NCBI GenBank assembly: GCA_030681835.1
Contig: JAUXRN010000193.1
Location: 13,506-77,505 of the forward strand
Source: Actinomycetota bacterium
Lineage (GTDB): Bacteria; Actinomycetota; Actinomycetes; S36-B12
DNA length: 64,000 nucleotides
Reading direction: 5' to 3'
In this document: piece by piece, positions 4,621 through 61,942 of the stretch
How the letters are laid out: the number at the start of each line of letters is the position of its first letter
Numbering within the stretch: position 1 is the stretch's first letter
The notes under the pieces: model-generated
The model's database searches: none
What the model was told of the DNA's origin: nothing
Seen by the model: only the letters and a program-made list of their open reading frames with translations
Program-made: the position numbers and the translations under genes

Positions 4621-4778
4621 CAGACGTTCAGGGTAAGCCGCCGGGTTCCGCGAGAAGGCATCGCGCGCGCCGGAACGGTATATGGCTCGAATGGGCTAGT
4701 TAGTTGTAGCCTTTCTGTCACACACGCCGCAGGCGTAACGTCCGCCGACACATGAGCAGATGAGGGGTGCACATACAC

Positions 4779-28475: not shown

Positions 28476-28832
28476 GTGAGGGCGTCGGACGACGGTGCCG
28501 CGACGATCTGGGCGGTGGCCCTGCTCGCGGTCTTAGGCCTGGTCGCCACGGCCTCGGGCGGGGTCGCTTCCCTCGCGGTCGCACGCCAGCGGGTGGCCCT
28601 TGCCGCCGACCTCGCCGCCCTTGCTGCGGCAACGTCGTGGTCCGATGCGTGCACCGCGGCCGCGCGATCTGCCGAGGCCAACGGTGCGTTGCTGCTCTCG
28701 TGTGCCCGCGACGGCCCAGACGTGCTGGTCGCGGTTGCCGCCCCTGTGCCACCCCTGGCCGGCCAGGTGTTCACGATGCTCGGACACCCCGTCGAGCAGG
28801 TCACCGCGAGCGCGCGGGCAGGGCCCTCCTAG
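28476..28832 (+). CDS. Rv3654c-family TadE-like protein
   Basis: DDGAATIW, AADLAALAAA, Cys pair, ARAGP C-terminus. Confidence 0.8.
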   Translation: MRASDDGAATIWAVALLAVLGLVATASGGVASLAVARQRVALAADLAALAAATSWSDACTAAARSAEANGALLLSCARDGPDVLVAVAAPVPPLAGQVFTMLGHPVEQVTASARAGPS

Positions 28833-46556: not shown

Positions 46557-47027
46557 ATGAAGCCCTTCCGCGTCCTTGCCCTGGCGATTGCCGCCCTCCT
46601 CGTGCCCGTACTCGCCGCGTGCGGTTCGACGTCGTCGGGCTCGTCCGACGCCGCATCGCCGGACGTCACCATAGGTGCCCAGCCGACCGGTGGGGCTGAC
46701 CTGGCCGGCACCTCATGGGTCCTCGCTGACGGACCCCTCTCGACGCAGGACCTGGCCAGCAAGGGGATCACCATCGAGTTCGCCGACGGCCAGGTCTCCG
46801 GCAACAGCGGAGTGAACACCTACTTCGGGGGCTACACGTCCACCATCGACGGCACCCTGGCGTTCGATCCGCTGGCCAGCACGATGATGGCCGGTGACGA
46901 GGCCGCCATGGCCCTGGAGCAGGAGTACCTCGCCGCACTGCAGTCGGCCTTCGGCTACTCGATCAGCGACGGGACTCTCACCATCTTTGGTGCAGCCGAC
47001 CAGGTCCTCACCTACACGGCGAAGTAG
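46557..47027 (+). CDS. META-domain (HslJ-like) lipoprotein
   Basis: LAAC lipobox; LAGTSW, VSGNSGVNTY, LASTMMA. Confidence 0.85.
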   Translation: MKPFRVLALAIAALLVPVLAACGSTSSGSSDAASPDVTIGAQPTGGADLAGTSWVLADGPLSTQDLASKGITIEFADGQVSGNSGVNTYFGGYTSTIDGTLAFDPLASTMMAGDEAAMALEQEYLAALQSAFGYSISDGTLTIFGAADQVLTYTAK

Positions 47028-47135
47028 AACGCGTCGCACTCTGGCGGCGCTTCAGGGCGGTTCGGATCGCCTGGTGAGGCCTTGTACCATTGGCAGGCTT
47101 CCGGCGAAGGCCGCAAGGAACCACGCGGGAAGCAC

Positions 47136-47210
47136 GCCGCCTTAGCTCAGTGGTAGAGCAACGCACTCGTAATGCGTAGGTCCGGGGTTCAAGTCCCCGA
47201 GGCGGCTCCA
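47136..47210 (+). tRNA. tRNA-Thr(CGT)
   Basis: Cloverleaf: GCCGCCT/AGGCGGC acceptor, GCTC/GAGC D-arm, ACGCA-CT-CGT-AA-TGCGT anticodon arm, CGGGG-TTCAAGT-CCCCG T-arm, encoded CCA. Confidence 0.98.
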
Positions 47211-47212
47211 CG

Positions 47213-47241
47213 CGAAAGTTGTTGGTATTAAACAACTTTCG
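47213..47241 (+). terminator. AT-rich hairpin directly after the tRNA (terminator-like or att-associated)
   Basis: CGAAAGTTGTT-GGTATTA-AACAACTTTCG, perfect 11-bp arms; no U-tract. Confidence 0.5.
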
Positions 47242-47278
47242 GGGTTCTGAGGTCAAGTTGGCGGAGCGCAATATCTGC

Positions 47279-47388
47279 CTTTCGCCCTTTCTTTCGCCCT
47301 TTCTTTTCTGACCGGGCACCCTTTCGCCCTTTCGGGTAAGGGCGGTGATTCGGCGTGTCCTGGCCGAAAGGGCGAGGTTAGGGCGAAG
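47279..47388. repeat. Integrase arm-type site candidates
   Basis: CTTTCGCCCTTT at 47279, 47291 and 47321; inverted partial copies at 47338, 47366 and 47380. Confidence 0.75.
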
Positions 47389-47504
47389 CCGTGGTCCTTG
47401 ACGCGCTGCCGAAGGATCATGGCCAGCGATGGCTGAAAGGCGTGCATCACTCAGTTGGGTGCCGGGGTCTTCACCCTGAGGGTGCGTGCGCTCGTTCGGT
47501 GGTG

Positions 47505-48830
47505 TCAGTCGAACAGGTGGCGTGACTCGTCGGGGTAGGCGAGGGACCATGCCGTCCATAGTGCGTCGATTCGTTCTGCCAGCGTGAGGTTGTGGTTCAC
47601 ACGCAGGGCTGCGCGAGCGGGATCCTGGCTCTTCTCTGACTGCGCCCTTGCGTAGTAGCGGTTGGTCGTTTGCACGTCGGCGTGGCGAAGGAGGGCGGCG
47701 GCTTCGTAGGGGGTGCCGCCGCTGTCGACGACGACGCTGGCGGCATAGGCGCGCAGATCCTTGATCTTGATAGCCCGGCGGCGGGGGTCCAGGGTCGGGG
47801 CGTTCGGATCGCCGTCGAGCCCGGCGGCCTTCCGGGCGGGCTGCCAGACTCGTTGGGTCCAGTTCGTGTGGTCGATCGTCATCGTGGGCTTGCGGCCGTG
47901 CCCGAACCTTGTGGGCGTGAACAGCAGGTCGCCACCGATGCGATCCTCGATGATGCGGTCCTCGGCCAGGTCGAGCAGCGCCGACCACAGAGGAGTGGGG
48001 AGCGGGACGACATCCGCGTTGCCGCCCTTGACTTCCTCGACGACCCACGCGCCATCGCTCATGCTCCAGGTGAACACTCGGCGCACGCTCAGGCGCTGCC
48101 GGTTTGGCCACACGTCGCCGACGGCCAGGCTGATGGCCTCGCTCCAGCGCAGCCCGGCCCAGGCCATGAGCAGGATCAGGAGCCGGTCCTCGCGTCGCTC
48201 GGGGTGGGACGCGAGCAGGGCCAGCTCCTGCCAGGAGGGCAGCAGCACGGGGTCGACGGTTGCGCGCCGACCTCTGCCTGACTTGGTGGATACGCGGCGA
48301 ACTTCGCGGGCGGGGTTGAAGGCCAGCCGGCCTTGCCGGACCTCCCAGGCGAGGGCGGCCCGGACGAGGGCGTAGGCCTTGGTGACACGGGGGTGGGAGT
48401 GCCCGAGGCGATGCAGGTCGCGGAGCCAGGCGTCGAGGAGTGGGCTGTCGATGTCCTTCACGGGGCGCAGGCCGAGGTTGTCCGGACCCTTGCCGATTAC
48501 ATTCTTGAGCAGTTCGGTGTAGTCGCGGATGGTGTTGACCGCGATGGGGTCGAGCCCGTCGTTGGCGCGGTCGGTCGTGTACTCGGTGATGAGCTGGGCG
48601 AGGCGCCGCACGGGTCCCCTGTTGGCGGGAGCGGGCTTGGTTGATCGTCCTCTGTCGAGGTCCGCGATGGTCTCGTTGAGAGCGCGGCGTGCTTCCGTGG
48701 CGGACGGGAAGCTGCCCTTGATGGCCCGTCGTGCGGGGTCGAGCCGTGCGGGAAGTCGGGCTCGCCACGACCCGGATCCCTTGGGATCCTCGCGGACCGA
48801 GCCCTCGGTGCCTCCCTGGCGTCGTCCCAT
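47505..48830 (-). CDS. Tyrosine recombinase/integrase
   Basis: N-terminal arm-binding-like segment (GSV...WRAR), AGLRWSE, KDLRAYAAS, LLRHADVQTTNRYY; GGAAAG RBS before ATG 48830. Confidence 0.92.
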   Translation of the reverse strand: MGRRQGGTEGSVREDPKGSGSWRARLPARLDPARRAIKGSFPSATEARRALNETIADLDRGRSTKPAPANRGPVRRLAQLITEYTTDRANDGLDPIAVNTIRDYTELLKNVIGKGPDNLGLRPVKDIDSPLLDAWLRDLHRLGHSHPRVTKAYALVRAALAWEVRQGRLAFNPAREVRRVSTKSGRGRRATVDPVLLPSWQELALLASHPERREDRLLILLMAWAGLRWSEAISLAVGDVWPNRQRLSVRRVFTWSMSDGAWVVEEVKGGNADVVPLPTPLWSALLDLAEDRIIEDRIGGDLLFTPTRFGHGRKPTMTIDHTNWTQRVWQPARKAAGLDGDPNAPTLDPRRRAIKIKDLRAYAASVVVDSGGTPYEAAALLRHADVQTTNRYYARAQSEKSQDPARAALRVNHNLTLAERIDALWTAWSLAYPDESRHLFD

Positions 48831-48938
48831 GGTGCTTTCCTTTCGGTTGCTTCGAGGTGTCAAGCACACGCCCACGAGAGCTCTCTGAGGCGTCTGGTGC
48901 GGGATCTGTGGACGGCCGGCCAGGTCGTGTGGATGGCG

Positions 48939-49166
48939 CTAGCCGGACTCACCGCGCTCGGATCCGGCGAAGGCAGTGATGTCGGCGTGCGTGTACCGGA
49001 CGAGCCGGCCGATGCGCCGGCAACGCAGGTCTCCGGTCGAGGTCAACTGGCGCACGAGGGTCGGCGAGATCGCCAGGCAGCGGGCCACTTCCTCCGCAGT
49101 GAACAGCACGCGTGGAAGCGTGACCGGGAGTGCATCGTGATCGGGTGACACTGCGGTGCCGGACAT
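48939..49166 (-). CDS. Excisionase-family HTH protein
   Basis: LFTAEEVARCLAISPTLVRQLTSTGDLRCRRIGRLVRY; immediately upstream of the integrase. Confidence 0.85.
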   Translation of the reverse strand: MSGTAVSPDHDALPVTLPRVLFTAEEVARCLAISPTLVRQLTSTGDLRCRRIGRLVRYTHADITAFAGSERGESG

Positions 49167-49168
49167 CG

Positions 49169-49975
49169 CTACACCGCGATCCGCTGGCCGGCGTCGATGC
49201 CGTCGATGCCCGGCGTCGGGTGGTGCCCGGCGTGGGGGGCGTGCTCGACGGCGCGGGTGCGGGCGTGGTCGAGGTGGGCGAGGGCGTGGGTGTGCTGGCG
49301 GGCGGCGTGGCCCATCGCGGCGACGGCGGCCTTCAGGTAGTCGATGCGGGCGTCGAGCATGCCGGACTGGGGCGGGTCGGCGTCCATGCGGTCCAGCCAG
49401 CCGGCCACGTGCGCCATCGGGGAGTTGGACATCACCCGGGGCGGCAGGCCGGCGTCGTTGCCGATGACTGGCTGCCCGCCGGGGCTGGCTGCCGCGGCGA
49501 TGTGGTGCGCGTGGGCGCGCACGGCGTGGCGGGTGGGGGTGATGCCGGCGGCGAGCAGGGCGTGGATGCAGGTGGTGACCTGGGCCTGCTCGAGGGTGAA
49601 GTCCACGCGCAGCCCGGACGCGGCGAGGCGGGTGGCGGCGATGGCCTCGGTCGCGGCGATGCGGCGCAGCAGCCGGGCGGCGTCGGGTTCGGGGATGCCG
49701 CGGGTGGCGGCGAGCTGCGCGGGGCTGGGGAACGGGTGGCCGGGGGGCACGGCGTCGGCGACGGGCCAGCGCAGCACCTCGTGCAGGAGGGCGTCGCCGT
49801 GGGCGATGACCTCGGGGTGGGGGTGGGCGGCGGTGCGGTCGGCGGCGCCGGCGAGGGTGCGGGCCAGGGCGTCGAGCAGGTGCGGGTCGTGGTCGGCGTA
49901 GATCGCGGCGGCGAGGAGGTCGGGGTCGGCGTGGCGCAGCGCGGTGAGGATGTCGGTGATGTCCAGGGGGTGCAT
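49169..49975 (-). CDS. Hypothetical protein with possible degenerate GntR-like wHTH
   Basis: AGGAG RBS, host-like codons; PPGHPFPSPAQLAATRGIPEPDAARLLRRI. Confidence 0.6.
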   Translation of the reverse strand: MHPLDITDILTALRHADPDLLAAAIYADHDPHLLDALARTLAGAADRTAAHPHPEVIAHGDALLHEVLRWPVADAVPPGHPFPSPAQLAATRGIPEPDAARLLRRIAATEAIAATRLAASGLRVDFTLEQAQVTTCIHALLAAGITPTRHAVRAHAHHIAAAASPGGQPVIGNDAGLPPRVMSNSPMAHVAGWLDRMDADPPQSGMLDARIDYLKAAVAAMGHAARQHTHALAHLDHARTRAVEHAPHAGHHPTPGIDGIDAGQRIAV

Positions 49976-50003
49976 GGCGGCTCCTGACGAAAGTGCTCCT
50001 GTC

Positions 50004-50039
50004 AGGTCAACGCGATTGCCCGCTCACTGTGACGCATTC
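50004..50039 (-). promoter_or_regulatory. Shared bipartite promoter-like motif, copy 1
   Basis: Minus strand GAATGCGTC-N14-ATCGCGTTGACCT upstream of 49975. Confidence 0.6.
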
Positions 50040-50076
50040 ACCGCCCCCGCCTCACGCAGAAGCCATCCCGGCAGGG

Positions 50077-50952
50077 TCAGGAGCCGACCGGGCTGAGCCC
50101 GGCCGCCGCGGCCCTCGCCGCGGCGACGACCGGCTGCTGGACCGGCTGCGGGGTGGGCTGGGGGGTGGGGTGGTCGGGGCGGCGGGGCTGCGCGGCGGCG
50201 CGGATGGTGTCGGCGTCGGTGAGCTGGTCGGGGTCCCAGCGCATGCGACGGGCGATGTCGATCATGCGGCGTTCCTGCCGCGGTGGTGGGGGGACGGGGA
50301 TCTTGGGCTTGGGCGCGATGTGGGAGGCCGTGGTGGTGATGAACACGATGGCCTCGTCCGACCAGCCCCACTCGACCAGCACGGGCACCAGGACGGGCCA
50401 GGCGGCCGGGCCGGTCAGGTCCAGGCGCTGCAGCTCGCTGGGGGTGGGGCAGCCGGGGCAGCGCACGGTGATGCCGTAGCAGCGGGCGAGCTTGTCCAGT
50501 GCGGCCTCGATGCCGGGATGGATCGAGCGGCCGGGCTGGCGGCGGGGGATGACCAGGGCCTCGAAGTGACGGGTCCGCCAGCCCAGGTCGTGCAGCAGGT
50601 CCAGCAGCCCGATGGTCGGGGAGAACGGGGAGGGGTGCGGCTCGACGGTCAGCAGGTCCCCGTCCACGGTCAGGGGGATGGCGCGCTTGTGGGTGCCCGC
50701 GGCCCGGCGGGCCTGGTGGGCGGCGTTGCGGGCGGCGATCTGCAGCATCGCCCCGGGGTTGGCGTGGCTGGCCAGCCGGGCGGCGATCATCCCGCCGGGC
50801 GCGAGGCGCTCGGTGAGCAGCAGGACGACGTCGCCGGCGATGTCAGGGTCGTGCGGGGAGACCCTGCGGGACAGCTCGATCAGCGCCCGGGCGGCGGCCG
50901 GGCTCGCGAGGGACGGGTCGGCGATGATCGCGTCCAGGTAGGTGTCGTGCAT
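50077..50952 (-). CDS. Hypothetical protein, possible divergent sigma-70/ECF-like factor
   Basis: GAGG RBS before ATG 50952; DIAGDVVLLLTERL...GAMLQIAARNAAHQARR resembles sigma region 2; CPGC; function tentative. Confidence 0.55.
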   Translation of the reverse strand: MHDTYLDAIIADPSLASPAAARALIELSRRVSPHDPDIAGDVVLLLTERLAPGGMIAARLASHANPGAMLQIAARNAAHQARRAAGTHKRAIPLTVDGDLLTVEPHPSPFSPTIGLLDLLHDLGWRTRHFEALVIPRRQPGRSIHPGIEAALDKLARCYGITVRCPGCPTPSELQRLDLTGPAAWPVLVPVLVEWGWSDEAIVFITTTASHIAPKPKIPVPPPPRQERRMIDIARRMRWDPDQLTDADTIRAAAQPRRPDHPTPQPTPQPVQQPVVAAARAAAAGLSPVGS

Positions 50953-51195
50953 CGTGGGCCTCGTCGCTTCTCTCGGGGCACCCCAGCGGGCTGCCAAGTG
51001 TCAGGATCGGTTTTCCTCCGGGGGCGCGCAAGCCCCAAACTTCGATCTGTGGACGGGCGGGTCAGCGTCCGCCGGGGGTAATCTGTAGGCATCCGGGGCC
51101 GGCATGCCCGGGATGGATGCGGGCGACGGGGATGCCGGGGTCGGGGATGCCGACGTCCTGGGCGCAGGTGTCGTGGCTGGGGGGATGGGGGCGCG

Positions 51196-51684
51196 GTGGC
51201 GGCGGTGCGGGACCCGGAATGGTTCGGCCAGGTCGTGCGCCATGCCGGTTCCCTGGCGGGCCACTCGACGCAGGCCGGGCTTGCCGAGGCCGCCGGGCTG
51301 AGCCTGAACACCGTGGTGAACGTGGTGACCGGGGCGCGGGGCTCCTACCGGCCCGCGACCCTGGCCAGCCTCGCGAACGGGCTCGGCATCGATCCGGGGC
51401 GGCTGCTGGCATGCGCGACCACCGGCACCGGCAACCGCCCACGCGGCATGGGGGCGGCTGCCCCGGGAGGGGCAGGGTCGTGGGTGGGGGTGGCGGCGGT
51501 GGATGCGGCGGCGCGCCTGGCCACGCCCGCCGGCCTCGAGGACGTGCCGGGGTCGGGGGCGGTGTTCGTGGTGAGCGTGCAGGGGGTCGACGCATCGGTG
51601 GTGGAGCAGGCCCTCGCGGCGACCCTGGCCCGCCTGGGCACCCGGCACCCGCACGCCCGGTCCACGGTGCGGCCGCTGGCCTGA
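51196..51684 (+). CDS. XRE-family HTH regulator
   Basis: TQAGLAEAAGLSLNTVVNVVTGARGSYRPATLASLANGLGID. Confidence 0.75.
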   Translation: MAAVRDPEWFGQVVRHAGSLAGHSTQAGLAEAAGLSLNTVVNVVTGARGSYRPATLASLANGLGIDPGRLLACATTGTGNRPRGMGAAAPGGAGSWVGVAAVDAAARLATPAGLEDVPGSGAVFVVSVQGVDASVVEQALAATLARLGTRHPHARSTVRPLA

Positions 51685-51724
51685 CCGCCGGAATGGGCGG
51701 CGGTGCGGGGCGGGGGGTCATGGC

Positions 51725-52537
51725 TCAGGCCCAGGAGATCGACGGCGGGGACACCGAGCTGAACGGGGCGCTGGGGTCCAGGCCGGCGGTGCGGGCGTGC
51801 TCGAGGGCGGGCTCGATCTGCTGGCTGTAGGCATCCAGGCCCATGCCGTCGGCGACGTGGGCCAGGGCCTGGCCGGTGGACCAGTGGACCGCGTTGCGGC
51901 CGTGGAACACCGCGACCGCGGCCCCCGCCGCACCGGACAGCCTCGTACCGGTCAGGTCGGCACCCGCGAGGACCGCGTCGTGCAGGTCGGCGTCCGCGGC
52001 ATTCGCACCGGCCAGGCCGGCCCGCGCCAGGTCCGCGCCGCGCAGGTCCGCGCCGGTCAGGTCGGCGCGCGCGAGCTCGGCCCCGGCCAGGCTCGCCCCC
52101 TGCAGCCGCGCCCCGGTCAGGTCCGCGTCGGCCAGGTCCGACCCGTCCAGTCGCGCGGCGGTCAGGTCCGCGCCCGCGAAGCTCGCCCCGGCCGCGGTCG
52201 CGTGCCGGGCGTCGGTGAACAGCATCGACGCAGCGTCGAACCGCGCGCCGGTCAGGTCGGCGCGGTCCAGCACGGCGCCGTCCAGGACCGCGCGGGTGAA
52301 GTCCGCCCCGCGCAGGTCGGCGCCGGTGAAGTCGGCGCCGTCGAGCCGGGACCCGGCGAACGACGCCCCGGCCAGGTCCGCTCGCACGAACACCGCGTCC
52401 GGCAGGTCCCGGCCCGAGTGATCCACCCGGGGCGCCGCGGGCGCCGTCATGCCGGCCGCGGGGGCAGGGTCGACATGGGGGCCGTCGTGGTCCGGGCGGT
52501 GGTAGTCCGGGCGGTCGTGGTCCGTGCGGTCGGGCAT
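51725..52537 (-). CDS. Pentapeptide-repeat protein
   Basis: Long run of A(D/R)(L/F)xG pentads; GGAGG RBS; three 15-nt tandem repeats near the start. Confidence 0.9.
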   Translation of the reverse strand: MPDRTDHDRPDYHRPDHDGPHVDPAPAAGMTAPAAPRVDHSGRDLPDAVFVRADLAGASFAGSRLDGADFTGADLRGADFTRAVLDGAVLDRADLTGARFDAASMLFTDARHATAAGASFAGADLTAARLDGSDLADADLTGARLQGASLAGAELARADLTGADLRGADLARAGLAGANAADADLHDAVLAGADLTGTRLSGAAGAAVAVFHGRNAVHWSTGQALAHVADGMGLDAYSQQIEPALEHARTAGLDPSAPFSSVSPPSISWA

Positions 52538-52611
52538 CAGGTGTCCTCCAGGCAGGTCGACGCCGGCCGGCCACGCTGGAGGCGCGACCGGAGGCGAATG
52601 GGCGTCCTACT

Positions 52612-52648
52612 AGGTCAACGCGATCGGCGGGGGGCCTGGCACGCATTC
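52612..52648 (-). promoter_or_regulatory. Shared bipartite promoter-like motif, copy 2
   Basis: Minus strand GAATGCGTG-N15-ATCGCGTTGACCT upstream of 52537. Confidence 0.6.
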
Positions 52649-52748
52649 GACCGGTCGCAGCCCAGCGGCCCCGCCCGGAACCCGGGCGAGCCGGCTGACG
52701 ATCGGGCCACTGGATGGGCTAGATCCGGCCGGGGGAGGTTCCCGCGGG

Positions 52749-54074
52749 TCAGGTGAGGGTGGGTCCGATGCGGGGGAAGCCGGTGGGCGCGGGTGGCGCG
52801 GGCCGGGCGGCGTGCCCGGGCCGGTGCAGGTCGGGCAGGTAGGGACGGCGGGGCTTGGCAGGGACCCACGCATCCGTGCTGGCGGTCATGAGTCGGTCGG
52901 CTACCGCGGAGCAGGCGTCCAGGGTGGGCAGTCCCGCGTGGATGGCGGCGAGCAGGCAGCGCCGGTCGACCTGGTTCGTGGTGGCCGCGGGGTGGGCGAT
53001 CGCCAGGAGCCGTTCGACGTCGCCGCGGATGACCCGGTCGGCGGGCTGGGCGCTGCGCAGGGGCTCCAGGTGCGCGGCCAGCACCTGCCACCGATGCGTC
53101 ACCTCGCTCACCCTTGTCTCCGTGGGCGCACGCAGGGTAGGCGGGTCGGGGTCGTGCCGGGTGCTGGTGGCCAGGACGTGGCTGGTGACCAGGCCCAGGG
53201 TGGCGAGGTCGTGCAGGGTGCGGGCACTGATCCGCCCGCGGGACCCGTGCGCGCGCAGCCGGGTCGCGATGCGGTCCAGCCGGGTCGCCCATTCGGCCGC
53301 CGGGCTGCTCGTATCCGGCCGGGCGTTGTGCGAGGCGAGGGGTGCGACGGCGCTGGAGGGGAACCCGATCGCGGCGGCCAGGTCCCAGCAGGCCGCGGTG
53401 ACCGGGTCGCCCAGCGGCAGGGCGTCGTCGATGGTCGTGCGGGGCAGTCCGGCCTGCCGGCAGCGCAGGGCCAGCGGCTCGACCGGGCCGACCATCGCGG
53501 CCAGGCGTGCCGGCGCCGCCAGCACGCCCAAGATATCCGCGCTGCCCAGGGCCGGTGACCCGGTGGGGCGCAGGGTCCCGTCGGGGTCGCGGTGGGTGGC
53601 GACCAGGTCGCTCGCCGCCGCCACCAGCACACAGGCCCGTTGCAGATCGACCGCAGCGAGCGCGCGCCCGGACTCCGCCGTGGCCGGCGAGGTGGAAGCC
53701 GGGGTGGACGCCGGTGGTTGGCCGGCAGCGGCGGTGAGGGTGTCGAGCCAGGCCAACGCACTGCGCATGCGCGGGTCGCGGTCGTCGGTCCCGCGCCGCG
53801 GCGGGGCGCCATCCCGCCAGGCACGCACGAGCGAGTCCCCGAGGATGGCCTGGGCGTGGTGGGCGATCTGGCCCAGCAGCCGGGCCCGGGCCGCCAGCAC
53901 GTCGCCCGCCGCGTCCGGGCCGCCGAGTGCGGTGCCGGCGATCGCGTGCTGGGCGTGCGCGCCGTGCCGGCGGGCGGCATCCATCAGCTCCCCGTACGTC
54001 ACCGGCCACGGCGACCCGAGCCCCGGTTCGTCATCCGGCTCGACGTCGGCGATCGCGTCGGGTGGCGTGGTCAT
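52749..54074 (-). CDS. Hypothetical protein (441 aa, Ala-rich, helical)
   Basis: Long ORF, ATGA overlap with the upstream gene. Confidence 0.7.
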   Translation of the reverse strand: MTTPPDAIADVEPDDEPGLGSPWPVTYGELMDAARRHGAHAQHAIAGTALGGPDAAGDVLAARARLLGQIAHHAQAILGDSLVRAWRDGAPPRRGTDDRDPRMRSALAWLDTLTAAAGQPPASTPASTSPATAESGRALAAVDLQRACVLVAAASDLVATHRDPDGTLRPTGSPALGSADILGVLAAPARLAAMVGPVEPLALRCRQAGLPRTTIDDALPLGDPVTAACWDLAAAIGFPSSAVAPLASHNARPDTSSPAAEWATRLDRIATRLRAHGSRGRISARTLHDLATLGLVTSHVLATSTRHDPDPPTLRAPTETRVSEVTHRWQVLAAHLEPLRSAQPADRVIRGDVERLLAIAHPAATTNQVDRRCLLAAIHAGLPTLDACSAVADRLMTASTDAWVPAKPRRPYLPDLHRPGHAARPAPPAPTGFPRIGPTLT

Positions 54075-54481
54075 GGCAAGGTGCCGGCGTAGGCGTGGTG
54101 GGCGATCGCGGCGCGGCGGGCGGCGTACCCGCAGGCCTCGACCAGGCCGGCCGGCATCCGCGGGTCATCGACCGCGGTCGCGTCGAGCAGGCGGCGCAGC
54201 GCGGGCGCGATGAGCGACCGGATGCCGGCGTCCGGGACGTCCGGCAGGTCCGGAGGGTGGGTGTGGGCGCCGGCGTCGGCGAGGTCGTCCATCGCCCACG
54301 CCATCTGCGGGGCGACCCACACCGCGTCGGTCGTCGTCCCCGGCGGGGCGGCCTGCAGGTCGCGCTGCGCCAGGGTGCGGATTGCCCAGCACCACGCCCA
54401 CGCCCGATCGGCCGACGACGCGCGGGCCGCGACCTGCGCGTCGACCACAGCGAGCCATGCGGCAACATCCATCAGGCTCAT
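54071..54481 (-). CDS. Hypothetical protein (136 aa)
   Basis: GAAGGG RBS; translationally coupled to 52749-54074. Confidence 0.65.
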   Translation of the reverse strand: MSLMDVAAWLAVVDAQVAARASSADRAWAWCWAIRTLAQRDLQAAPPGTTTDAVWVAPQMAWAMDDLADAGAHTHPPDLPDVPDAGIRSLIAPALRRLLDATAVDDPRMPAGLVEACGYAARRAAIAHHAYAGTLP

Positions 54482-54653
54482 CCCTTCATCGGTGGCGGCA
54501 GCAGGCTCGTCGAGCTCGCCCGGCCTGTTCGGGTTCTCCCCGGCGCGGGGCGGGGGTGTTCACCATCCGCGGCCGGGCGTGCGTCGCGCGAGGCGAGCCG
54601 GGCTTGGTGTGGACGGGCAGGAGAGGGCTGTGGACGGAAGCCGCTCGACGCGG

Positions 54654-55844
54654 CTAGCTGGCCAGCCCGGGCGACGGACCGAGCACCGCGGAGGCGACCG
54701 GAGGATGCGCAACTGCGGGTGCTTGCCGCGCCGGTGCGGGCGATGGTGCGGTCGGCTGGTGGGTGCCGTGCCGGCAGGTGTCCCGGTCCAGGCCACCCAG
54801 GGACGCGGCCCATGTGCTCGGCGGCAGGCCGGAGCGCAGGGCGGCGCCGACCAGGTGGGCCAGGGAGTAGTCGGGGTCGTCGGCGGCGGCGCGGTCCAGG
54901 GCGACGTTGGCGCGGGCGCCGTCGCCGGAGGTCCACTGCGTGATCGCCAGCACGGTGGCTGCGGGGGCGACCAGGCCGGGCGGGGCGCAGCGGACCAGGT
55001 CCGCCAGCCGCGACGCGAATGCCCGGGTGTCGGTGCCCGGCTGGGCCGCATCCCACAGGAACGTATCCCGCACCCGCACGTCCGCCAGGCCCTGCAGCGC
55101 CAACGCCGCATCCTCCGGGCCGATAGGGGCACCGCTGGTGCGGGTCAGTGCGGCGAGATGCTCAACAGCGCGGTCCCGCCACCCCTCCAGGCCGCGCGTG
55201 CCGCGGCGGGGCGCTGCCGCGTCGGCGACCAGTGTCGCGATCGAGTTGACCCGGGCGGGGTCGGGGGCGATCTCCTCGGTGAGGGCGGCGCGGGACGGGG
55301 CCATCGCCGCGCCGACGCCGGCGAACTCCGCCGCCACCAGGGTCCGCGTTGCCTCCGGGATGAGCCGTCCCTGGGGCGGGCAGCAGCCCGGGTCGTCGCA
55401 GCCATAGGACCACCGCGACGTCCCGTCGGTGAACAACGCGTCACGCACCCCCAGCCCGGCGTCGTCGACGGCGGCCAGCAAGTCGTCCACCAGCGCGGCG
55501 GACGGCAGGCCGGCGCCGGGGGACGGGGCCGCGCCGAACACGGCGACGATCACCTCCGTCGACCCCGAGCGGGCCATCGGGACGACCGCGGACCGCGCGA
55601 TCGACACCACCTCTCGCGCGGGGGCATCCGGCCGGGGCGTGTCGAACCGCTGGACCAGGCGCACCATGGCACCCACGTCTCGCCGGTCGTCCGGGTTGGG
55701 GCCGAGGCCCACCAGCACCACCGAGTCCTGGCAGTCGAACCCCAGCAGGTGAGGCACCGAAGCCAAGAGCGCATCCGGGCCTGACAGCACCAGCCTGTCC
55801 ACCGTCCGGCCCACCGCGCCCGCCTGAGGAATCACCGTCATCAC
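54654..55844 (-). CDS. DUF4192-domain protein
   Basis: LSGPDALLASVPHLLGF...SVVLVGL, RWSYGCDDPGCCPPQG, DVRVRD, GDGARANVALDRA...DPDYSLAHL. Confidence 0.85.
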   Translation of the reverse strand: MMTVIPQAGAVGRTVDRLVLSGPDALLASVPHLLGFDCQDSVVLVGLGPNPDDRRDVGAMVRLVQRFDTPRPDAPAREVVSIARSAVVPMARSGSTEVIVAVFGAAPSPGAGLPSAALVDDLLAAVDDAGLGVRDALFTDGTSRWSYGCDDPGCCPPQGRLIPEATRTLVAAEFAGVGAAMAPSRAALTEEIAPDPARVNSIATLVADAAAPRRGTRGLEGWRDRAVEHLAALTRTSGAPIGPEDAALALQGLADVRVRDTFLWDAAQPGTDTRAFASRLADLVRCAPPGLVAPAATVLAITQWTSGDGARANVALDRAAADDPDYSLAHLVGAALRSGLPPSTWAASLGGLDRDTCRHGTHQPTAPSPAPARQAPAVAHPPVASAVLGPSPGLAS

Positions 55845-55892
55845 GCACCGCCCTCGCCATGGGCCACGCCGATCGCGGCCCCTACTTACCTG

Positions 55893-55920
55893 ACGCGATA
55901 CGACCCGACGTATGACACAA
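55893..55920 (-). promoter_or_regulatory. Shared bipartite promoter-like motif, copy 3
   Basis: Minus strand TTGTGTC-N14-ATCGCGT upstream of the DUF4192 gene. Confidence 0.5.
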
Positions 55921-56190
55921 GCAGGCGCGCGTCATCTGGCAGGAGGGAGGAAGAAGAACGGCCCGCAGTTCGTGTCCGGATTGTCGGCCACGCGGGATTT
56001 TGGGCGAGTGTCGACGTAACTGTTCAGTTTGTATGCGCCGTCGACACATTCGGCAGTAGCGGCTGGATCCGCTAGTTGATTCACTCGTAAGGAGTGTCGT
56101 GACTGCGCGTAGCGCCCCGATTCCGCAGGGCATGACTCGCTACGTAAGCAGCTCAGGTTGGTTGTCGGAGATGTTCCCTACGCTTGCTGG

Positions 56191-57438
56191 ATGAAGTTCA
56201 CAGCACTCCACCGCATCGTCGGTATCGGGCCAGGGCCACTCACGGACGAGCTCCTCGATGCGGCCGTCGCTGTCGGCGGTGTGGAAACGAGTGACTTGGA
56301 TTGGAAATCCGAGCTTCCCCCTATGAATGGACTTCCGCAGACAGACTTCCCCAAGGACGTCGCCGCCATGGCGAACAGTGGCGGTGGGTTGATCGTCTTT
56401 GGCGTGCGCGAAGTCCAATCCGCCGCGACGGCCCGGGTTGACGTCGGTGAGCTAGCCGAGGTCTACGAGCGGGCCCTGCGTAGCGCAGCGATCACAGCCA
56501 TCTCGCCGCCCGTCTTCGGTCTAGGCGTGCACCGCCTGGGCGAGGAAGGCAGCCGGGCAGTGGTTGTCCACGTTCCGGCGAGCATCGATGGGCCGCACTT
56601 CATATACCGAGGTGAGTACTTCGGTGCGCCTGTGCGAAACGGCGCAGACACGGTTTGGATGAAGGAGCGGCAGATCGCGGCGATGTACCGCGCCCGATTC
56701 GATGAGCGCAGTCACTCGACTGAGGTACTGAATGCGTTGTTCGAGGAAGCATCCAGCGGCCGCAACACCAACGAACGTGCGTGGCTCGTCGCGGTCGCCC
56801 ACCCTCGAATTCCTCGCTTGGGAGATCGTCTAACCCGCGAAGGAGCTCGGGCTGTGCTTTCGGCAGCCGTCCCGCTGGCACTTGGCTATGCGGGCCGCGA
56901 GGGTATCCACCCGATCGAGAGTGTGGACCGGGCCAACCCCCGACCGGGATTACGCCGTTGGGTCGCCGCGAACTCGGCAACCAATGACCGCTCGAAGTGG
57001 AAGGAGGCGTGGGTGGCCATTCACCATGATGGCTCGGTCACTCTCACTGCCGCAGTCGGCGGCCACCGCCGTAACGGCGGCGAGAACTTCGAGGGCTGGC
57101 AAGTCATGTCAACTGCTCTCGAGTGCGCCGTCGCGGACGTCATGGCGTTGATCCGGTCCACCGGGGAAGCAACAGACAACCAGGAGTACGAGGTACGCAT
57201 CGGAATCAACTGGGCAGGTCTGCAGCCGCTAACAATCCTGACGCGGGACAACTCCGGTGACGTCTACGACGGTGTCTCGACTCCACTCCATCACTACTCG
57301 CCAATTGAGGTAACGGTCAATGCTGCCGATTCTCCGAATGAGTACTTCTGGTGCGTTCACGACGTTGCCGAGGACTGCGTGAACCAAGGGGGCATTTCGA
57401 ACGTGTTGATGATCCTTCCCCCGGCACGCGAAACATAG
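56191..57438 (+). CDS. Schlafen/AlbA_2-domain protein
   Basis: ETSDLDWKSEL, KDVAAMANSGGGLIVFGVRE; likely start ATG 56191; more A/T-ending codons than the host genes. Confidence 0.85.
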   Translation: MKFTALHRIVGIGPGPLTDELLDAAVAVGGVETSDLDWKSELPPMNGLPQTDFPKDVAAMANSGGGLIVFGVREVQSAATARVDVGELAEVYERALRSAAITAISPPVFGLGVHRLGEEGSRAVVVHVPASIDGPHFIYRGEYFGAPVRNGADTVWMKERQIAAMYRARFDERSHSTEVLNALFEEASSGRNTNERAWLVAVAHPRIPRLGDRLTREGARAVLSAAVPLALGYAGREGIHPIESVDRANPRPGLRRWVAANSATNDRSKWKEAWVAIHHDGSVTLTAAVGGHRRNGGENFEGWQVMSTALECAVADVMALIRSTGEATDNQEYEVRIGINWAGLQPLTILTRDNSGDVYDGVSTPLHHYSPIEVTVNAADSPNEYFWCVHDVAEDCVNQGGISNVLMILPPARET

Positions 57439-57902
57439 GCTCAAGCAGCCTGGCGTAGTTTTGTGGAACGTGTCACCTGCTATCTCTGCGTCTGCCAAAG
57501 CCCGCTGGATAGCATCACCCCACCAATCTGGCGTCGTCGGCGTGCCTCACCTGTGCCAAGTGCCCAAACATCGGACCGCGCCGCCCTTTGGTGACTTGTG
57601 CCTCATCCGTGCATGACCTGAGCGCACGAGGCCTATCGCCGGGCAGCCATAGGACATTGTGTGATCGCAACTCATTGCGGGACAACGCGTTTGGACGTTG
57701 AAAGGTAAGGGTGTGGAGCGGGTCGGGTTCGAGCCGCCAGACAGTTCTGTAGCAGGTTCTGACGGCGTGCGGTGATCCTACCCAGCACTGGAAGTGATCT
57801 ACTTCTACAAGGATCCCGCTATCCAGAACGCTGACCTAGCGACTTCGTCATGAGGCTCAGGACAAGCGCTCAGTTTGTGAAGACGAACATGAGTCCCTTT
57901 GA

Positions 57903-58337
57903 CTAACTGACGACGCTGCCGTCCGCGTTGACCTTGCCCATTGCCACGAGAACTCCCTTCAAGCTTTCAAGTTCCTCTCGACGTCGCGCCAACGCATCTG
58001 CCATGACGTCGCATTCATCGCGCCATTCGCGGTAAGTGTCGGTGTCGAGCGATACAACCACCGTCTGCTTCTTCTCATCTGTCGGCAGACGCCTATAGAA
58101 GACCAAGCTGCCCTGTCCCACCAGATAACCAATGCCGAAGGCTGATGGTAGAAATGCGATCGGCAAACCCGGCCAGTAGTTGATTTCGCCGAAGTTCTCG
58201 AACGATACGTAGCTAACCCAGAAGAATATGAACATGGCCGGAATAAGGCAGGCCACCCATGCAGCGATCGTGCGCCGCCAGTCGAATACCGTGACGTAGC
58301 CAAGACCATCCTTGTCATACGTGACCTCGCGAGACAT
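57903..58337 (-). CDS. Hypothetical two-TM protein with C-terminal coiled coil
   Basis: GAGG RBS; hydrophobic segments, then ADALARRREELESLKGVL; lower-GC tract. Confidence 0.65.
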   Translation of the reverse strand: MSREVTYDKDGLGYVTVFDWRRTIAAWVACLIPAMFIFFWVSYVSFENFGEINYWPGLPIAFLPSAFGIGYLVGQGSLVFYRRLPTDEKKQTVVVSLDTDTYREWRDECDVMADALARRREELESLKGVLVAMGKVNADGSVVS

Positions 58338-58853
58338 GGCCTCAATTTAGGCGATCATCGATGGGACCGTCATGGCCGTACCGCGGGTCCGGCATCACGC
58401 GCTTGTCCTACGCGACCGGCCACTTCCGATGTCAGGCACCGATCGACAACTGGCGGTCTTCCCGGTGTGGCGAACGCGGGCAGGTTCTCCGGCCCGGCCG
58501 GGATGCCCGCGTCCGTTCCGGCTGCACGCGGGTTGAGCGCGAGGTTCCGGTTGCCTGCGTCGGCAGCCGCGCGGGGGGCAGCGTGCTCTGATGCTTCCCC
58601 GGACCGCTCGCCGAGGCGCGTGCCTGTGGAGCATTCCGATGACTGATCTCATCGGGGCCCGCGCTGTCCGACAGCCCGGTTCGACGGGCAGGGTCCGGCG
58701 CCACGGACCCGGAGACTGCCTCATCGTGTGAGCGACGCCACAGGCATGCGTTGACGGTTCATCCTGAATAGTCCACTGTGCCCCGGGATATCCGCTTCTA
58801 TCGTCGCCAGCATGGCACCCGCGCGGGAGCTGCTGCGACGACCGGGGGACGCG

Positions 58854-58970
58854 ATGCCGCACGGCCAGCCACGACCGCCACACGAGCGCGACCCCTGGCA
58901 CCTCGTCATCGCCGGTGTGGCGTTCCTGCTCGCCGCCGGCATCCTGGTCCTGTGGATTGCCCTGGCCTAG
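58854..58970 (+). CDS. Small single-TM protein (38 aa, absent from ORF track)
   Basis: MPHGQPRPPHERDPWHLVIAGVAFLLAAGILVLWIALA; GGGGA upstream. Confidence 0.45.
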   Translation: MPHGQPRPPHERDPWHLVIAGVAFLLAAGILVLWIALA

Positions 58971-59214
58971 GCACGGCAGCAATGCAGGGCCGCGGTGACT
59001 GTGCGGTCGTGCCCCGTTCAGTCCTGGTCCGCGCCGCCCGTGAGCAGTCCCCGTCGACGGGGTGGCACGTTGCCCAGCCGAGCCGCCCGCTGGGTGGCCC
59101 GGACAGATTTGCTCGTGCGGCGGGGGCCCATCAATCTCCAGCGCCGGTGACCGTGAGGCGTTCGAGGTGCTCGAGCGCACTCCGTGACCGGGGTGATGGC
59201 GCTACCGTGGCCGC

Positions 59215-59502
59215 ATGCGACGACTGCTGGCAGTCCTGGTGATGTCGTGCGTGGTGGCGGTCGGCATGCCGGTGATGGCTCCGGCCAGTGCGGCGCCGGC
59301 CAGTGCGGCGACGACGCGGTTCACGAGCTGCGACGCGATGCACGAGGTGTACCGGTACGGGATCGCGATGAGCCGGGCGGCCGCGACCCGTGCGGTCAGT
59401 GACGGGATGTACCGGCCGCGCGTGAAGCCGCAGGTGTACGCCGACTCCTACAAGACCCTGGACCGGGACAAGGACGGGGTGATGTGCGAGGTCCCGCGCT
59501 GA
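59215..59502 (+). CDS. Secreted Excalibur calcium-binding domain protein
   Basis: Signal peptide; FTSC...LDRDKDGVMCE (DxDxDGxxCE); perfect 15-nt tandem duplication at 59281-59310. Confidence 0.85.
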   Translation: MRRLLAVLVMSCVVAVGMPVMAPASAAPASAATTRFTSCDAMHEVYRYGIAMSRAAATRAVSDGMYRPRVKPQVYADSYKTLDRDKDGVMCEVPR

Positions 59503-60137
59503 CCTCGCGCGGCCTGGCCGCGGCGCTGGTCGCGGTCCTGGCCATCGCGATCGCCCCGCCCGCCACGGCCGCGCCCGACGGGGTGGACGCTGTCGAGCAG
59601 ATGCTCGAGGCGTTGGCCGTGCAGCCGGAACGCAACCGGGGCTACTCCCGTGACCGGTTCGACGACTGGCACTCCTATGACGGCTGCGACACCCGCGAGA
59701 TCGTGCTGATCCGGGAGGCCCGCGGCGGCACGCGCCGCGGCTGCGTGATGGCCCGGGCAACGTGGTGGTCCTACCTCGACGGGGACACGACCAGGAACCC
59801 GTCCCGCTTCGATATCGACCACACCGTGGCACTGGCCGAGGCGTGGGGCTCGGGGGCGAAGGGGTGGACCCGCGCCCGGCGGGACGCGTTCGCCAACGAC
59901 CTTGGCTACCGGGACTCCCTGATCGCCGTGTCCGCGTCGAGCAACCGCTCGAAAGGCGAGCGGGACCCGGCCGAGTGGATGCCCCCACGAGCAGCCGCTG
60001 ACTGCCGGCTCGTGCAGGCGTGGATCGCGGTGAAGTGGCGCTGGGGACTGTCCATCGACGCCTCCGAGAAGCGAGCCCTGGAGCGTGAACTGGCGGACTG
60101 CGACCGGCTCGTGGTGCCCATCCCGGCGAAGGCGTAG
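59484..60137 (+). CDS. Secreted HNH nuclease (DUF1524-type)
   Basis: Signal peptide; GYSRDRF, CDTREIVL, DIDHTVALAEAW, FANDL, SNRSKG. Confidence 0.88.
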   Translation: MRGPALTSRGLAAALVAVLAIAIAPPATAAPDGVDAVEQMLEALAVQPERNRGYSRDRFDDWHSYDGCDTREIVLIREARGGTRRGCVMARATWWSYLDGDTTRNPSRFDIDHTVALAEAWGSGAKGWTRARRDAFANDLGYRDSLIAVSASSNRSKGERDPAEWMPPRAAADCRLVQAWIAVKWRWGLSIDASEKRALERELADCDRLVVPIPAKA

Positions 60138-60285
60138 CCGCCGGCAGTCACGCGGCCGAACCGGACGACCAGCTGCGTCGCGCATCGCCCGCGACAACCA
60201 ACGCTCCATCGCGCCGGGGTGCAACCGACCCGCGGGTTCACCCGGCCCAGCACCGGCAGGCAGGGAGCGGCAGCGGCTGCCTGCT

Positions 60286-60510
60286 CTACATGGCCCCGAG
60301 CCGTCGGCGGACGGCGCGCAGGCGGAGGTGGCGCAGGACGACGGCGGGTGCGTGGAGCAGGGCGGCGGGGTCGTCGAGGAGTTCGTCGAGGAGCTGGTAG
60401 TAGCGGGCGGGCTCGAGGCCGAAGTGCTCGCGGATGGCCGTGTCCTTGCACTGCAGGTAGGTCCAGGGCCGCCGTTCGAAGTCGAGGATGGCCTGCTGGA
60501 CCCTGGTCAC
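60286..60510 (-). CDS. DUF3263-family protein
   Basis: AILDFERR...KDTAIREHFGLEPARYYQLL...LLDDPAAL. Confidence 0.82.
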   Translation of the reverse strand: MTRVQQAILDFERRPWTYLQCKDTAIREHFGLEPARYYQLLDELLDDPAALLHAPAVVLRHLRLRAVRRRLGAM

Positions 60511-60755
60511 TGGTGCTATCCCTGCTCTCGGTGGCGTCGTCGTGGTGGGATGAGGGCGGGCTGGACCCTCGCGCGCGTTGGGGTGCGGCGAGGACCCAGC
60601 CTCATGGGTTCGGGAGCCGGAGTTGTGCCCGCGTGACGCCCGAACGTCGAACGTATGGCCCCCAGGAAGGCACGGGAATACCTACTGGCCAGTTGTGATG
60701 CACGTCGCATGCAAGTTGCATGACGGCGTTGCATGCCGTGGATACGGTCCGTCGA

Positions 60756-60938
60756 ATGGAGCCGCGGCAGACCCTGGAGTGGGACGTCCTGGAGCACGCT
60801 GACTTCACCTCGTGGCTGGACGGGCTGCGGGCGCAAGGCTGGTACCGGGTGGCTGGGGTGTCCGGGGTGAAGACCTCGCGAGGGACGATCGGATACCTGT
60901 TCCAGTACCTGGAGCCTGCCGTCCAGCGGGGGGCGTGA
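60756..60938 (+). CDS. Small hypothetical protein (EWDVLE paralog 1)
   Basis: TACGGT 7 nt before ATG 60756; similar to 61503-61796. Confidence 0.7.
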   Translation: MEPRQTLEWDVLEHADFTSWLDGLRAQGWYRVAGVSGVKTSRGTIGYLFQYLEPAVQRGA

Positions 60939-60940
60939 GG

Positions 60941-61249
60941 GTGCCGGACAGCGTGACGATCGTCGTGGGTGCGCCGTTCGCGGCCGCGGGGGATGCGGTT
61001 CGGGAGTGGCTGCCGGGGGCGCAGCAGCGCCGCCGGTCGGCGGACCTGGTGGAGTTCTACCGCCCGGGCCGGATCGTGTCCGCGTACTCGGTGGGCGAGA
61101 GCACGCATGTGCACGTGTGGGACCACGAGGGCAGCGACGGGGCGGCGAAGGGCTTGTTGGGGTTCCTCGGGGCGCGCAACTTGGCGGCAGTCCACGAGGA
61201 CGAGGCCGCGCCGGCGGGCGCCGTCGACCTCGACCGGCCGATGGGATGA
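60941..61249 (+). CDS. Hypothetical protein (102 aa)
   Basis: GTG 2 nt after the previous stop; host-like codons. Confidence 0.6.
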   Translation: MPDSVTIVVGAPFAAAGDAVREWLPGAQQRRRSADLVEFYRPGRIVSAYSVGESTHVHVWDHEGSDGAAKGLLGFLGARNLAAVHEDEAAPAGAVDLDRPMG

Positions 61250-61252
61250 CGG

Positions 61253-61366
61253 TTGGGCGGCCGAAAGAGCGGGGGCGAGTGGCTCGTCATCATCATGGGG
61301 GCAGTCGCGCTCATCGGGGTGGTCGCGTTGGCGGTTTACCTCACGGTCGAGCTGGTCATCACGTAG
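61253..61366 (+). CDS. Small single-TM protein (37 aa, absent from ORF track)
   Basis: TTG start, same frame as the previous gene: MGGRKSGGEWLVIIMGAVALIGVVALAVYLTVELVIT. Confidence 0.45.
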   Translation: MGGRKSGGEWLVIIMGAVALIGVVALAVYLTVELVIT

Positions 61367-61502
61367 CCGTGCGCGCGCACCCTGACCGCGGGATCCAGCA
61401 TGCGCAGAACCGGTTGTTACTGGCTAGTTGTGGCGGGTCTCACTTGTCGCAGTCGCGTCGCAGGCCTGTTCGGTTGCCATGCGCGGCGATACGGTGCCGC
61501 GC

Positions 61503-61796
61503 GTGATGCTGCGGCGGTCCTTCGAGTGGGACGTCCTGGAGTGTCCGAGCCCGAACGCCTGGCTTGACGACCTGCGTGACCAGGGCTGGACCAGGGTTCC
61601 CGGCGTGCCTGGGGTCACCACCGACCATGGGACCGTCATCTACGATTTCCGGCACCAGGGCCCCGCCGGCGCAATCGAGCCTGAGCCGGGGACGGCCAGT
61701 CTTCGGTCCCTTGGCTTGCTCCTCGCGGCATGCGCCTTGACCGTCGCGGTCATCGTGGCGGCCGACCTCATCGTCATGGCAATCGTCCAGTCCTGA
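61503..61796 (+). CDS. Small hypothetical protein with C-terminal TM (EWDVLE paralog 2)
   Basis: TACGGT 7 nt before GTG 61503; similar to 60756-60938. Confidence 0.7.
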   Translation: MMLRRSFEWDVLECPSPNAWLDDLRDQGWTRVPGVPGVTTDHGTVIYDFRHQGPAGAIEPEPGTASLRSLGLLLAACALTVAVIVAADLIVMAIVQS

Positions 61797-61942
61797 AGCC
61801 AGCGTGGGCGGACCAGCTCGGGGACAGGAGCGTGCAAGAGCCTCCGAGGGCTCCGTCGCGCGTTCGTCGGATCGCTTGCCCGCAACCGCCGTAGCCTTCG
61901 CGTAGAGGTAGTTGAGCGTCGAACCACTGAGGAGGGACGGGT

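Follow-up and report, generated by a model that had tools for sequence, protein, structure and literature searches.

INTRODUCTION

The closest described case of an integrative element with a sigma activity of its own is Tn916, in which the split sigma factor Sig7-Sig8 drives the main promoter, Psig7, and is needed for excision and conjugation (bioRxiv 10.64898/2026.10.01.756105). The same report names T4 gp55/gp33, SPO1 gp33/gp34, Bacillus subtilis SigO-RsoA and pBS32 SigN as further sigma-like precedents. Two published promoter motifs are relevant, namely CGTAAC-N16-CGTTGA for BldN (PMC2375139) and CGTAAC-N16-CGATGA for sigma-ShbA (PMC12019637). The present analysis concerns three repeated sites, S1 to S3, on an integrative element of an Actinomycetota bacterium (GenBank assembly GCA_030681835.1). 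The element begins in a stretch of 64,000 nucleotides of contig JAUXRN010000193.1 (positions 13,506 to 77,505), referred to as the window, and positions are those of the window unless a contig or locus is named.

An earlier sequence-only reading had proposed that a private two-box promoter motif precedes three transcription units of this island and ties them into one element-specific regulon. The motif was recovered, extended by a third block and found in a whole family of related elements. The three sites are likely promoters. With confidence about evenly balanced, we propose that a repressor controls an element-encoded sigma-like factor, which in turn would serve a private regulon for excision and transfer. 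Literature searches on integrative elements, sigma factors and Actinobacteria returned no such system, and those on DUF4192 returned unrelated work only. As far as these searches reached, the regulation of integrative elements of Actinomycetota with a relaxase or type-IV-secretion-type functions is undescribed.

RESULTS

Three sites of one build

The three sites and the gene of the candidate factor are as follows.

49996-50039, minus strand: S1, precedes the 268-amino-acid (aa) gene, xis and int; predicted start near A50000
52604-52648, minus strand: S2, precedes the pentapeptide-repeat gene; predicted start near A52608
55879-55920, minus strand: S3, the weakest copy, precedes the DUF4192, 136-aa and 441-aa genes; predicted start near A55883
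50077-50952, minus strand: gene of P0001, the 291-aa candidate specificity factor

The minus-strand reading agreed exactly with the coordinates and orientation given earlier for the three copies. Each site is intergenic and, as had been described, is oriented into its downstream gene. S1 consists of box A GAATGCGTC (50039-50031), a spacer of 14 nt and box B ATCGCGTTGACCT (50016-50004). S2 has box A GAATGCGTG (52648-52640), 15 nt and the same box B (52624-52612), and S3 has box A TTGTGTC (55920-55914), 14 nt and box B ATCGCGTCAGG (55899-55889). Box B of S1 ends 28 nt 5' of the ATG (49975) of the 268-aa gene. The downstream start codons are the ATG at 52537 of the pentapeptide gene for S2 and the GTG at 55844 of the DUF4192 gene for S3. 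A third block, (G/A)(T/C)AGG, which the sequence-only reading did not contain, is located 7 nt past CGT(T/C)(G/A) in all three sites. This box C is GACAGGAG in S1 (50003-49996), AGTAGGAC in S2 (52611-52604) and GTAGGGG in S3 (55885-55879). The overall motif is TGCG, 20-21 nt, CGT(T/C)(G/A), 7 nt and (G/A)(T/C)AG.

The 13-mer ATCGCGTTGACCT was present in two exact copies in the window, at S1 and S2, and in three in the 3.27-Mb genome. The 9-mer GAATGCGTS was found exactly at S1 and S2 only; with one mismatch it gave 24 matches compared to a shuffle mean of 32.7, i.e. no enrichment. Because the identity of the 13-mer and the 9-mer is exact while the spacers are unrelated, an origin by chance is excluded. 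A loose pattern that covers S1 to S3, TG[CT]GT[CG]-N13-16-ATCGCGT, matched the genome six times compared to a mean of 3.05 in 20 triplet shuffles. Three of the six matches lie inside 5.9 kb of the window, in the same orientation and between genes, a fourth, on contig C164, is paralogous, and the remaining two fall in apparent coding stretches. S3 is the weak copy among the three.

Promoter-like geometry of the sites

S1 can be read as CGTCAC-N16-CGTTGA, S2 as CGTGCC-N17-CGTTGA and S3 as TGTCAT-N16-CGTCAG. All three thus show the two-block build of extracytoplasmic function (ECF) promoters, with the blocks 16-17 nt apart and CGT in the downstream one. The sequence-only reading had claimed this geometry by comparison with a BldN motif, and both the claim and the motif proved sound: CGTAAC-N16-CGTTGA is in print (PMC2375139), and S1 agrees with it at 11 of the 12 hexamer positions. 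A search of positions 47000-56400 for sigma-70-type promoters found 0, with 0.2 expected. In ECF promoters transcription starts about 7 nt past the -10 block. Starts are predicted, as predictions only, at the A of (G/A)(T/C)AGG in each site (50000, 52608 and 55883).

Three other kinds of promoter element were tried and rejected. TTGACC in box B was considered as a housekeeping -35 element, and no TANNNT was present at 16-18 nt. For a sigma-54 promoter, the GGCAC in box A lacked a TTGC 5 nt downstream (by eye). For GGGTA as a SigB/SigF-type -10 element, the block 14-16 nt upstream was not conserved (by eye).

The motif in a family of elements

A paralogous island with the same gene order and protein identities of 38-63% is present in this assembly, on contig C11. 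This island has its own version of the motif before its DUF4192, pentapeptide and 268-aa homologues and further sites before an NlpC/P60 hydrolase gene and a 473-aa gene; it also encodes EccE-like and weak AAA_10 genes. In other public genomes, relatives of P0001 are encoded at 17 loci. A site of the same build, orthologous to S1, was present directly 5' of the 268-aa homologue in all 13 loci that reach that position. The related element L001 has an ortholog of S2 at 5347, and before its DUF4192 gene all three blocks of S3 are kept with a different spacer. In the relatives and on other contigs the motif precedes xis-int, integrase, TrwC relaxase, NlpC/P60 cell-wall hydrolase and secretion-type genes.

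In an alignment of 24 sites from the window and 10 related loci, the G of TGCG and the GT of CGT were invariant, and the C of CGT was kept in at least 90% of the sites. Counted from the T of TGCG, the C of CGT was 24 nt away in 14 and 25 nt away in 7 of the 21 training sites. The family consensus has TGCG(A/C)GGCACC as upstream block and GTAG(G/A)(A/G)G as third block at the presumed start. Box A is longer than a hexamer, being GAATGCGAGGCACC in most relatives, and the whole motif extends over about 48 bp.

The motif occurs as four subtypes with the core TGCG...CGT...GTAG common to all. These four subtypes match four well-supported clades of P0001 in a tree of 11 rows. Two elements of different subtype are present per genome in three genomes, i.e. 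this assembly, that of L001 and L004, and that of the contig with L006 and L013. As two subtypes in one genome are not needed by a single host factor, the element itself probably encodes the determinant of specificity. The putative promoter type is best assigned to a family of integrative elements, mobilizable or conjugative, that use tRNA-Thr as insertion site in uncultured Actinomycetota.

Several arrangements of sites were observed besides these. L006 and L013 are located on one public contig, with different subtypes and with their factor genes about 13.5 kb apart, which points to tandem integration. On contig C164 (1164-1290; L018), two sites 66 nt apart, one of the C11-like and one of the window-like subtype, precede a single TrwC relaxase gene, and a third site precedes a xis gene at 4660; it is possible that this module answers to two factors. 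On contig C1 of genome G003 (86624-138030; L036-L038), six co-oriented sites are spread over 50 kb. They represent a further subtype, AACTTGCGAGGTACC ... CCGTTGA ... GGGTATGCC, and no P0001 relative was found on this contig, for which open reading frames and sites were listed. The contig may contain a larger element that has a more distant factor or is served in trans.

Restriction to mobile elements

A position matrix was built from 21 sites of other genomes only; L013 was left out (its sites are letter-identical to those of C11 in the printed stretches). Against this assembly the matrix gave 12 matches of at least 24 bits, on contigs C11 (5), C132 (2), C164 (2), C85, C204 and C119, while three shuffled genomes gave scores of up to 22.6 bits. 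Mobile-element genes were seen on five of these six contigs, C119 being the exception. Eleven of the 12 matches precede xis, integrase, relaxase, small helix-turn-helix (HTH) or named island genes; the twelfth is that on C119. With this family-wide matrix S2 scored 21.3 bits and S1 17.3 bits, the two best scores on the 81.8-kb contig of the window, and S3 less than 12. These scores indicate that the window sites are a divergent subtype.

The pattern TGCGNGGYAC-N12-15-CCGTTGA, which covers the two commonest of the four subtypes, gave 47 matches in 10 of 61 genomes (this one and 9 of 60 relatives), compared to one match for the reversed control. Forty-three of the 47 matches were in 7 of the 10 genomes with a P0001 homologue, and the other four in 3 of the 51 genomes without one. 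A third pattern, YGTNAC-N16-17-CGTTGA, matched this genome seven times. Two of these matches are element sites, and five appeared coding-like by eye from their flanks, no gene calls having been made.

In the matrix and pattern scans of this genome the motif was not found before core host genes. The sequence-only reading's idea of an element-specific motif held to this extent; the motif is a property of the whole element family and not of this island alone. Similarly, the sites do link the excision unit, the pentapeptide gene and the DUF4192 operon as proposed, and the set is larger than these three units. A fourth site of the same geometry, on the minus strand at what would be window position 66541, precedes a 95-aa HTH gene beside the relaxase gene.

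A single CGTAAC-N16-CGATGA on contig C36 (36928, minus strand) was also observed. It is identical to the published motif of the sigma-ShbA-dependent hrdB promoter.

P0001 as candidate factor

The N-terminal domain of P0001 (about residues 1-93) is predicted to resemble sigma region 2, and the C-terminal 190 residues contain invariant H145, C158, C165 and C168 and have no assigned fold. Sequence comparisons gave little. In Pfam only one chance-level match was obtained at E <= 10, and Sigma70_r2 was not recognisable by sequence. None of 40 aligned P0001 relatives matched a sigma family, Sigma70_r4 included, and a PF04542 scan of this genome found nine other genes and not that of P0001. There was no match in PHROGs, a single chance-level match for the sequence profile in PDB, and none at E <= 0.001 in Foldseek searches of PDB and BFVD; the single-sequence fold was poor, with a predicted local distance difference test (pLDDT) value of 44.6. 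A profile search of 1.84 billion protein representatives found no remote relatives. Alignment by hhalign with seven sigma-70-family proteins of the host was not significant (E 0.18, probability 0.3); in this match residues 24-99 align to region 2 in the expected register. For the whole protein the ESM Atlas returned actinobacterial clusters without a name and, as a single weak lead (score 0.89), a cluster in which 27% of the members carry Sigma70_r2; for residues 105-265 there was no usable match.

The predicted complex of P0001 residues 1-100 with the clamp-helix segment of the host beta-prime subunit scored 0.79, 0.80 and 0.79, compared to 0.00 for the best of three controls. The mark applied to this score is reached by 116 of 157 solved pairs and by 2 of 215 mismatched pairs. 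At least 54% of the contacts were common to the runs, and the pLDDT of the partner was at least 80. The predicted interface is formed by the coiled-coil tip of host RpoC and by residues 15-25 and 36-51 of P0001. Since sigma-polymerase complexes have already been solved, the score shows likeness to region 2 and is not proof of binding.

The predicted docking and the agreement of its clades with the subtypes make P0001, which the sequence-only reading had singled out, the best candidate for the factor. That it is a sigma-like factor reading S1 to S3 is suggested by the model, and we consider the chances for and against to be about equal. Several points weigh against the proposal. The clade match does not single out P0001, because every gene of the element co-varies with the motif subtype. 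The score of S1 with the family-wide matrix falls within the range of the shuffled genomes, and that of S3 is lower still. Three of the 10 genomes with a P0001 homologue have no match to the two-subtype pattern, and the three genomes with matches and no homologue have one or two each, one of these genomes being only 53% complete. The promoter role of S1 to S3 and the start positions are themselves deduced from the sequence.

A more far-reaching version is tentative, and we think it rather less probable than its negation: P0001 may represent a new sigma class, in which a region-2-like head sits on the clamp helices and a zinc-binding C-terminal module replaces region 4, possibly with the 95-aa HTH protein as helper. 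Its clades would then have diverged so that co-resident elements read their own subtype only. Mutually insulated transcription codes would exist among co-resident mobile elements, and the C164 relaxase module with its tandem promoters of two subtypes could listen to both.

Control region and proposed switch

The gene of P0001 is separated by a control region from a divergent regulator gene.

50953-51195, no strand: divergent control region between the XRE gene and the P0001 gene, with conserved blocks of presumed role
51196-51684, plus strand: XRE/Cro-type HTH gene, divergent from P0001; likely repressor

The XRE-type product matched HTH_31 (E 2e-4) and HTH_3 (E 5e-3) in Pfam, both under the curated cut-offs, and transcriptional regulators or repressors in PHROGs (best E 6.5e-7). 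It is likely the repressor of the switch. The family motif was not found before the P0001 gene (50953-51195). The blocks kept there across subtypes are a TAATCT/TAAAAT-type (TANNNT-type) -10 element on the strand of the XRE gene, CTGACA repeats, and CGAAGTTT-like and GGGGAAAACC-like blocks. At S1 an inverted repeat, CCTGAC-N12-GTCAGG (49983-50006, minus strand), extends over box B, the predicted start and the ribosome-binding site. The S1 orthologues of other subtypes have different palindromes at the same place. Conserved symmetry with a changing sequence suggests an additional operator for the excision unit.

In the proposed switch the XRE-type repressor would hold P0001 off. Once made, P0001 would place its region-2-like N-terminal domain on the beta-prime clamp helices, and host RNA polymerase carrying it, or directed by it, would read the sites. 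Block A, the TGCG core within GAATGCGTS, would serve as a -35-like element, block B, CGT(T/C)(G/A), as a -10-like element, and block C, (G/A)(T/C)AGG, as the start-site block. P0001 would thus fire S3, S2, S1 and the fourth site near the relaxase gene, and because one factor would fire all sites, excision and transfer functions would come on together. No terminator-like site was seen between the pentapeptide gene and the P0001 gene, so that transcription from S2 could continue into the P0001 gene, passing the XRE gene in antisense. Positive feedback by such read-through is speculation.

Alternative explanations

It is conceivable, though unlikely, that the blocks, comparable to the activator boxes of other integrative and conjugative elements, are bound by an activator of the element's own (P0001, the 268-aa protein or another), through which the host housekeeping holoenzyme is recruited. 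SetCD of SXT/R391 is such a precedent for activator-driven operons; it reportedly acts as one element regulator, an activator with host sigma, on several excision and transfer operons via a shared upstream box. A motif of about 48 bp exceeds a minimal ECF promoter, with box A reaching beyond the hexamer, and P0001 has no recognisable region 4, while its His/Cys cluster could be a zinc DNA-binding module. However, neither a TANNNT-type -10 element nor a sigma-70-type promoter was found at the sites or downstream of them. What is invariant corresponds to an ECF -10 block (CGT), with a constant spacing of 16-17 nt to the upstream block, and in structure and docking P0001 is most like sigma region 2, not an activator.

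A host ECF sigma factor of the BldN or ShbA kind could instead read S1 to S3, in which case the element would tap a stress or developmental signal of the host and P0001 would do something else. This explanation we hold to be improbable. The agreement of S1 with the BldN motif at 11 of 12 positions speaks for it, as do the nine sigma-70-family genes of the host and the C36 site identical to the sigma-ShbA motif (PMC12019637); the core common to all subtypes could also be read by one host factor. Against this, the subtypes differ between co-resident elements in three genomes and track the P0001 clade. No comparable site was found before core host genes in the scans of this genome, and five of the six contigs that carry the 12 strong matrix matches were seen with mobile-element genes.

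That the repeats are not transcription signals at all, being structures of a 5' leader RNA, recombination or transfer-origin sites, or chance, is very improbable: some spacers do contain short GC-rich palindromes (by eye), and S1 and its orthologues have the inverted repeat over box B and the start region, but RNAalifold gave no consensus pair in the 24 aligned sites, no Rfam family was found at the sites, each element has several copies, all intergenic and all facing a gene, and the exact 13-mer and 9-mer identity with unrelated spacers is not chance.

Element setting

The remaining features of the left part of the element are as follows.

47136-47210, plus strand: tRNA-Thr (CGT), integration site, left end of the element
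47505-48875, minus strand: tyrosine integrase gene
48939-49166, minus strand: excisionase-type gene (HTH_17)
49169-49975, minus strand: P0003, 268-aa gene, no family assigned, first gene after S1
51725-52537, minus strand: pentapeptide-repeat protein gene, downstream of S2
52749-54074, minus strand: 441-aa gene, no family assigned, S3 unit, with a 4-nt overlap with the 136-aa gene
54071-54481, minus strand: 136-aa gene, no family assigned, S3 unit
54654-55844, minus strand: DUF4192 gene, first gene after S3

The tyrosine integrase and excisionase genes adjoin the tRNA gene, as expected of an integrative element, and since the tRNA-Thr (CGT) gene is followed by the integrase gene, the island begins at the tRNA. 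The 268-, 441- and 136-aa proteins and the DUF4192 protein had no match in PHROGs. Past the window the same contig (C219, 81.8 kb) carries a TetR gene, the 95-aa HTH gene and a TrwC relaxase gene. The relaxase domain is located about 3 kb past the window (L024, 5052-6851), and its gene is cut by the contig end. With the relaxase gene on the same contig, the element has a minimum length of 21 kb and counts among the integrative elements that carry a relaxase. No second copy of the tRNA 3' half, as attachment site, was found on the contig, which ends within the relaxase gene.

The 95-aa protein is encoded just past the window on the minus strand (C219:79672-79959; L024, 4672-4959). Its C-terminal HTH is weak, with HTH_23 at E 1e-3 and Sigma70_r4_2 at E 1.5e-3, both under the cut-off, and the protein shares 53% identity with a 136-aa protein whose gene adjoins the C132 relaxase gene. 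A role as accessory protein of the relaxosome, or as a region-4-like partner for the factor, is conceivable.

Partial tRNA-Thr 3' halves were observed on three other contigs, namely C132 (19238-19290), C204 (143-194 and 4082-4124) and C78 (25591 and 28541-28592), and aragorn found no full tRNA at these copies. They look like attachment-site scars of further elements at the same tRNA, perhaps in tandem arrays that were fragmented by the assembly. Another observation is a low-GC stretch of the window at 56158-62818 (0.61 at 56-58 kb) with a Schlafen/AlbA_2-domain gene (56158-57438), a GmrSD_C endonuclease-domain gene (59403-60137) and an HD_5 gene (61943-62818). This stretch is probably cargo of the element, possibly defence genes.

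Comparison with known systems

If the proposed switch is correct, a mobile element would have a way to turn on its excision and transfer genes jointly. A repressor, a private sigma-like factor and dispersed promoters would form a compact switch for the timing of excision and transfer, in a lineage represented solely by metagenomes. P0001, a protein family of no known kind, may widen the range of sigma architectures. The four natural promoter-factor pairs, which co-exist in single genomes, would be candidate orthogonal transcription parts, and they would exemplify how competing mobile elements are insulated from each other, or eavesdrop on each other.

The sites resemble the Streptomyces promoters of BldN and sigma-ShbA in their two blocks, the 16-17 nt spacer and the CGT in the -10 block. 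The BldN -10 block CGTTGA is identical in S1 and S2, and the -35 block of S1 is CGTCAC (PMC2375139). Unlike those promoters, the family has TGCG(A/C)GGCACC as upstream block instead of CGTAAC and the third block GTAG(G/A)(A/G)G at the presumed start, and its motif occurs on mobile elements only, without a linked canonical ECF sigma gene. The difference from SetCD is that the blocks stand at -35 and -10 positions and that a housekeeping -10 element is absent.

With the phage and plasmid factors the proposed system shares the principle that mobile DNA redirects host polymerase by a minimal or split sigma factor; gp55 is a region-2-only protein that recognises a -10-like element (bioRxiv 10.64898/2026.10.01.756105). 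P0001 has no sequence relation to these factors, and no counterpart of its C-terminal His/Cys part was found among those that could be compared. Tn916 is an element of a Firmicute and uses two small subunits that activate their own promoter, whereas here there is a single 291-aa protein with only a predicted region-2-like domain. The P0001 gene, unlike the Tn916 case, lacks the family motif and faces a divergent XRE gene, and there are several dispersed promoters and co-existing subtypes. The comparison of P0001 with Sig7 and Sig8 is one of published description. Common to both systems is an integrative element with a sigma activity of its own, established for Sig7-Sig8 and candidate here.

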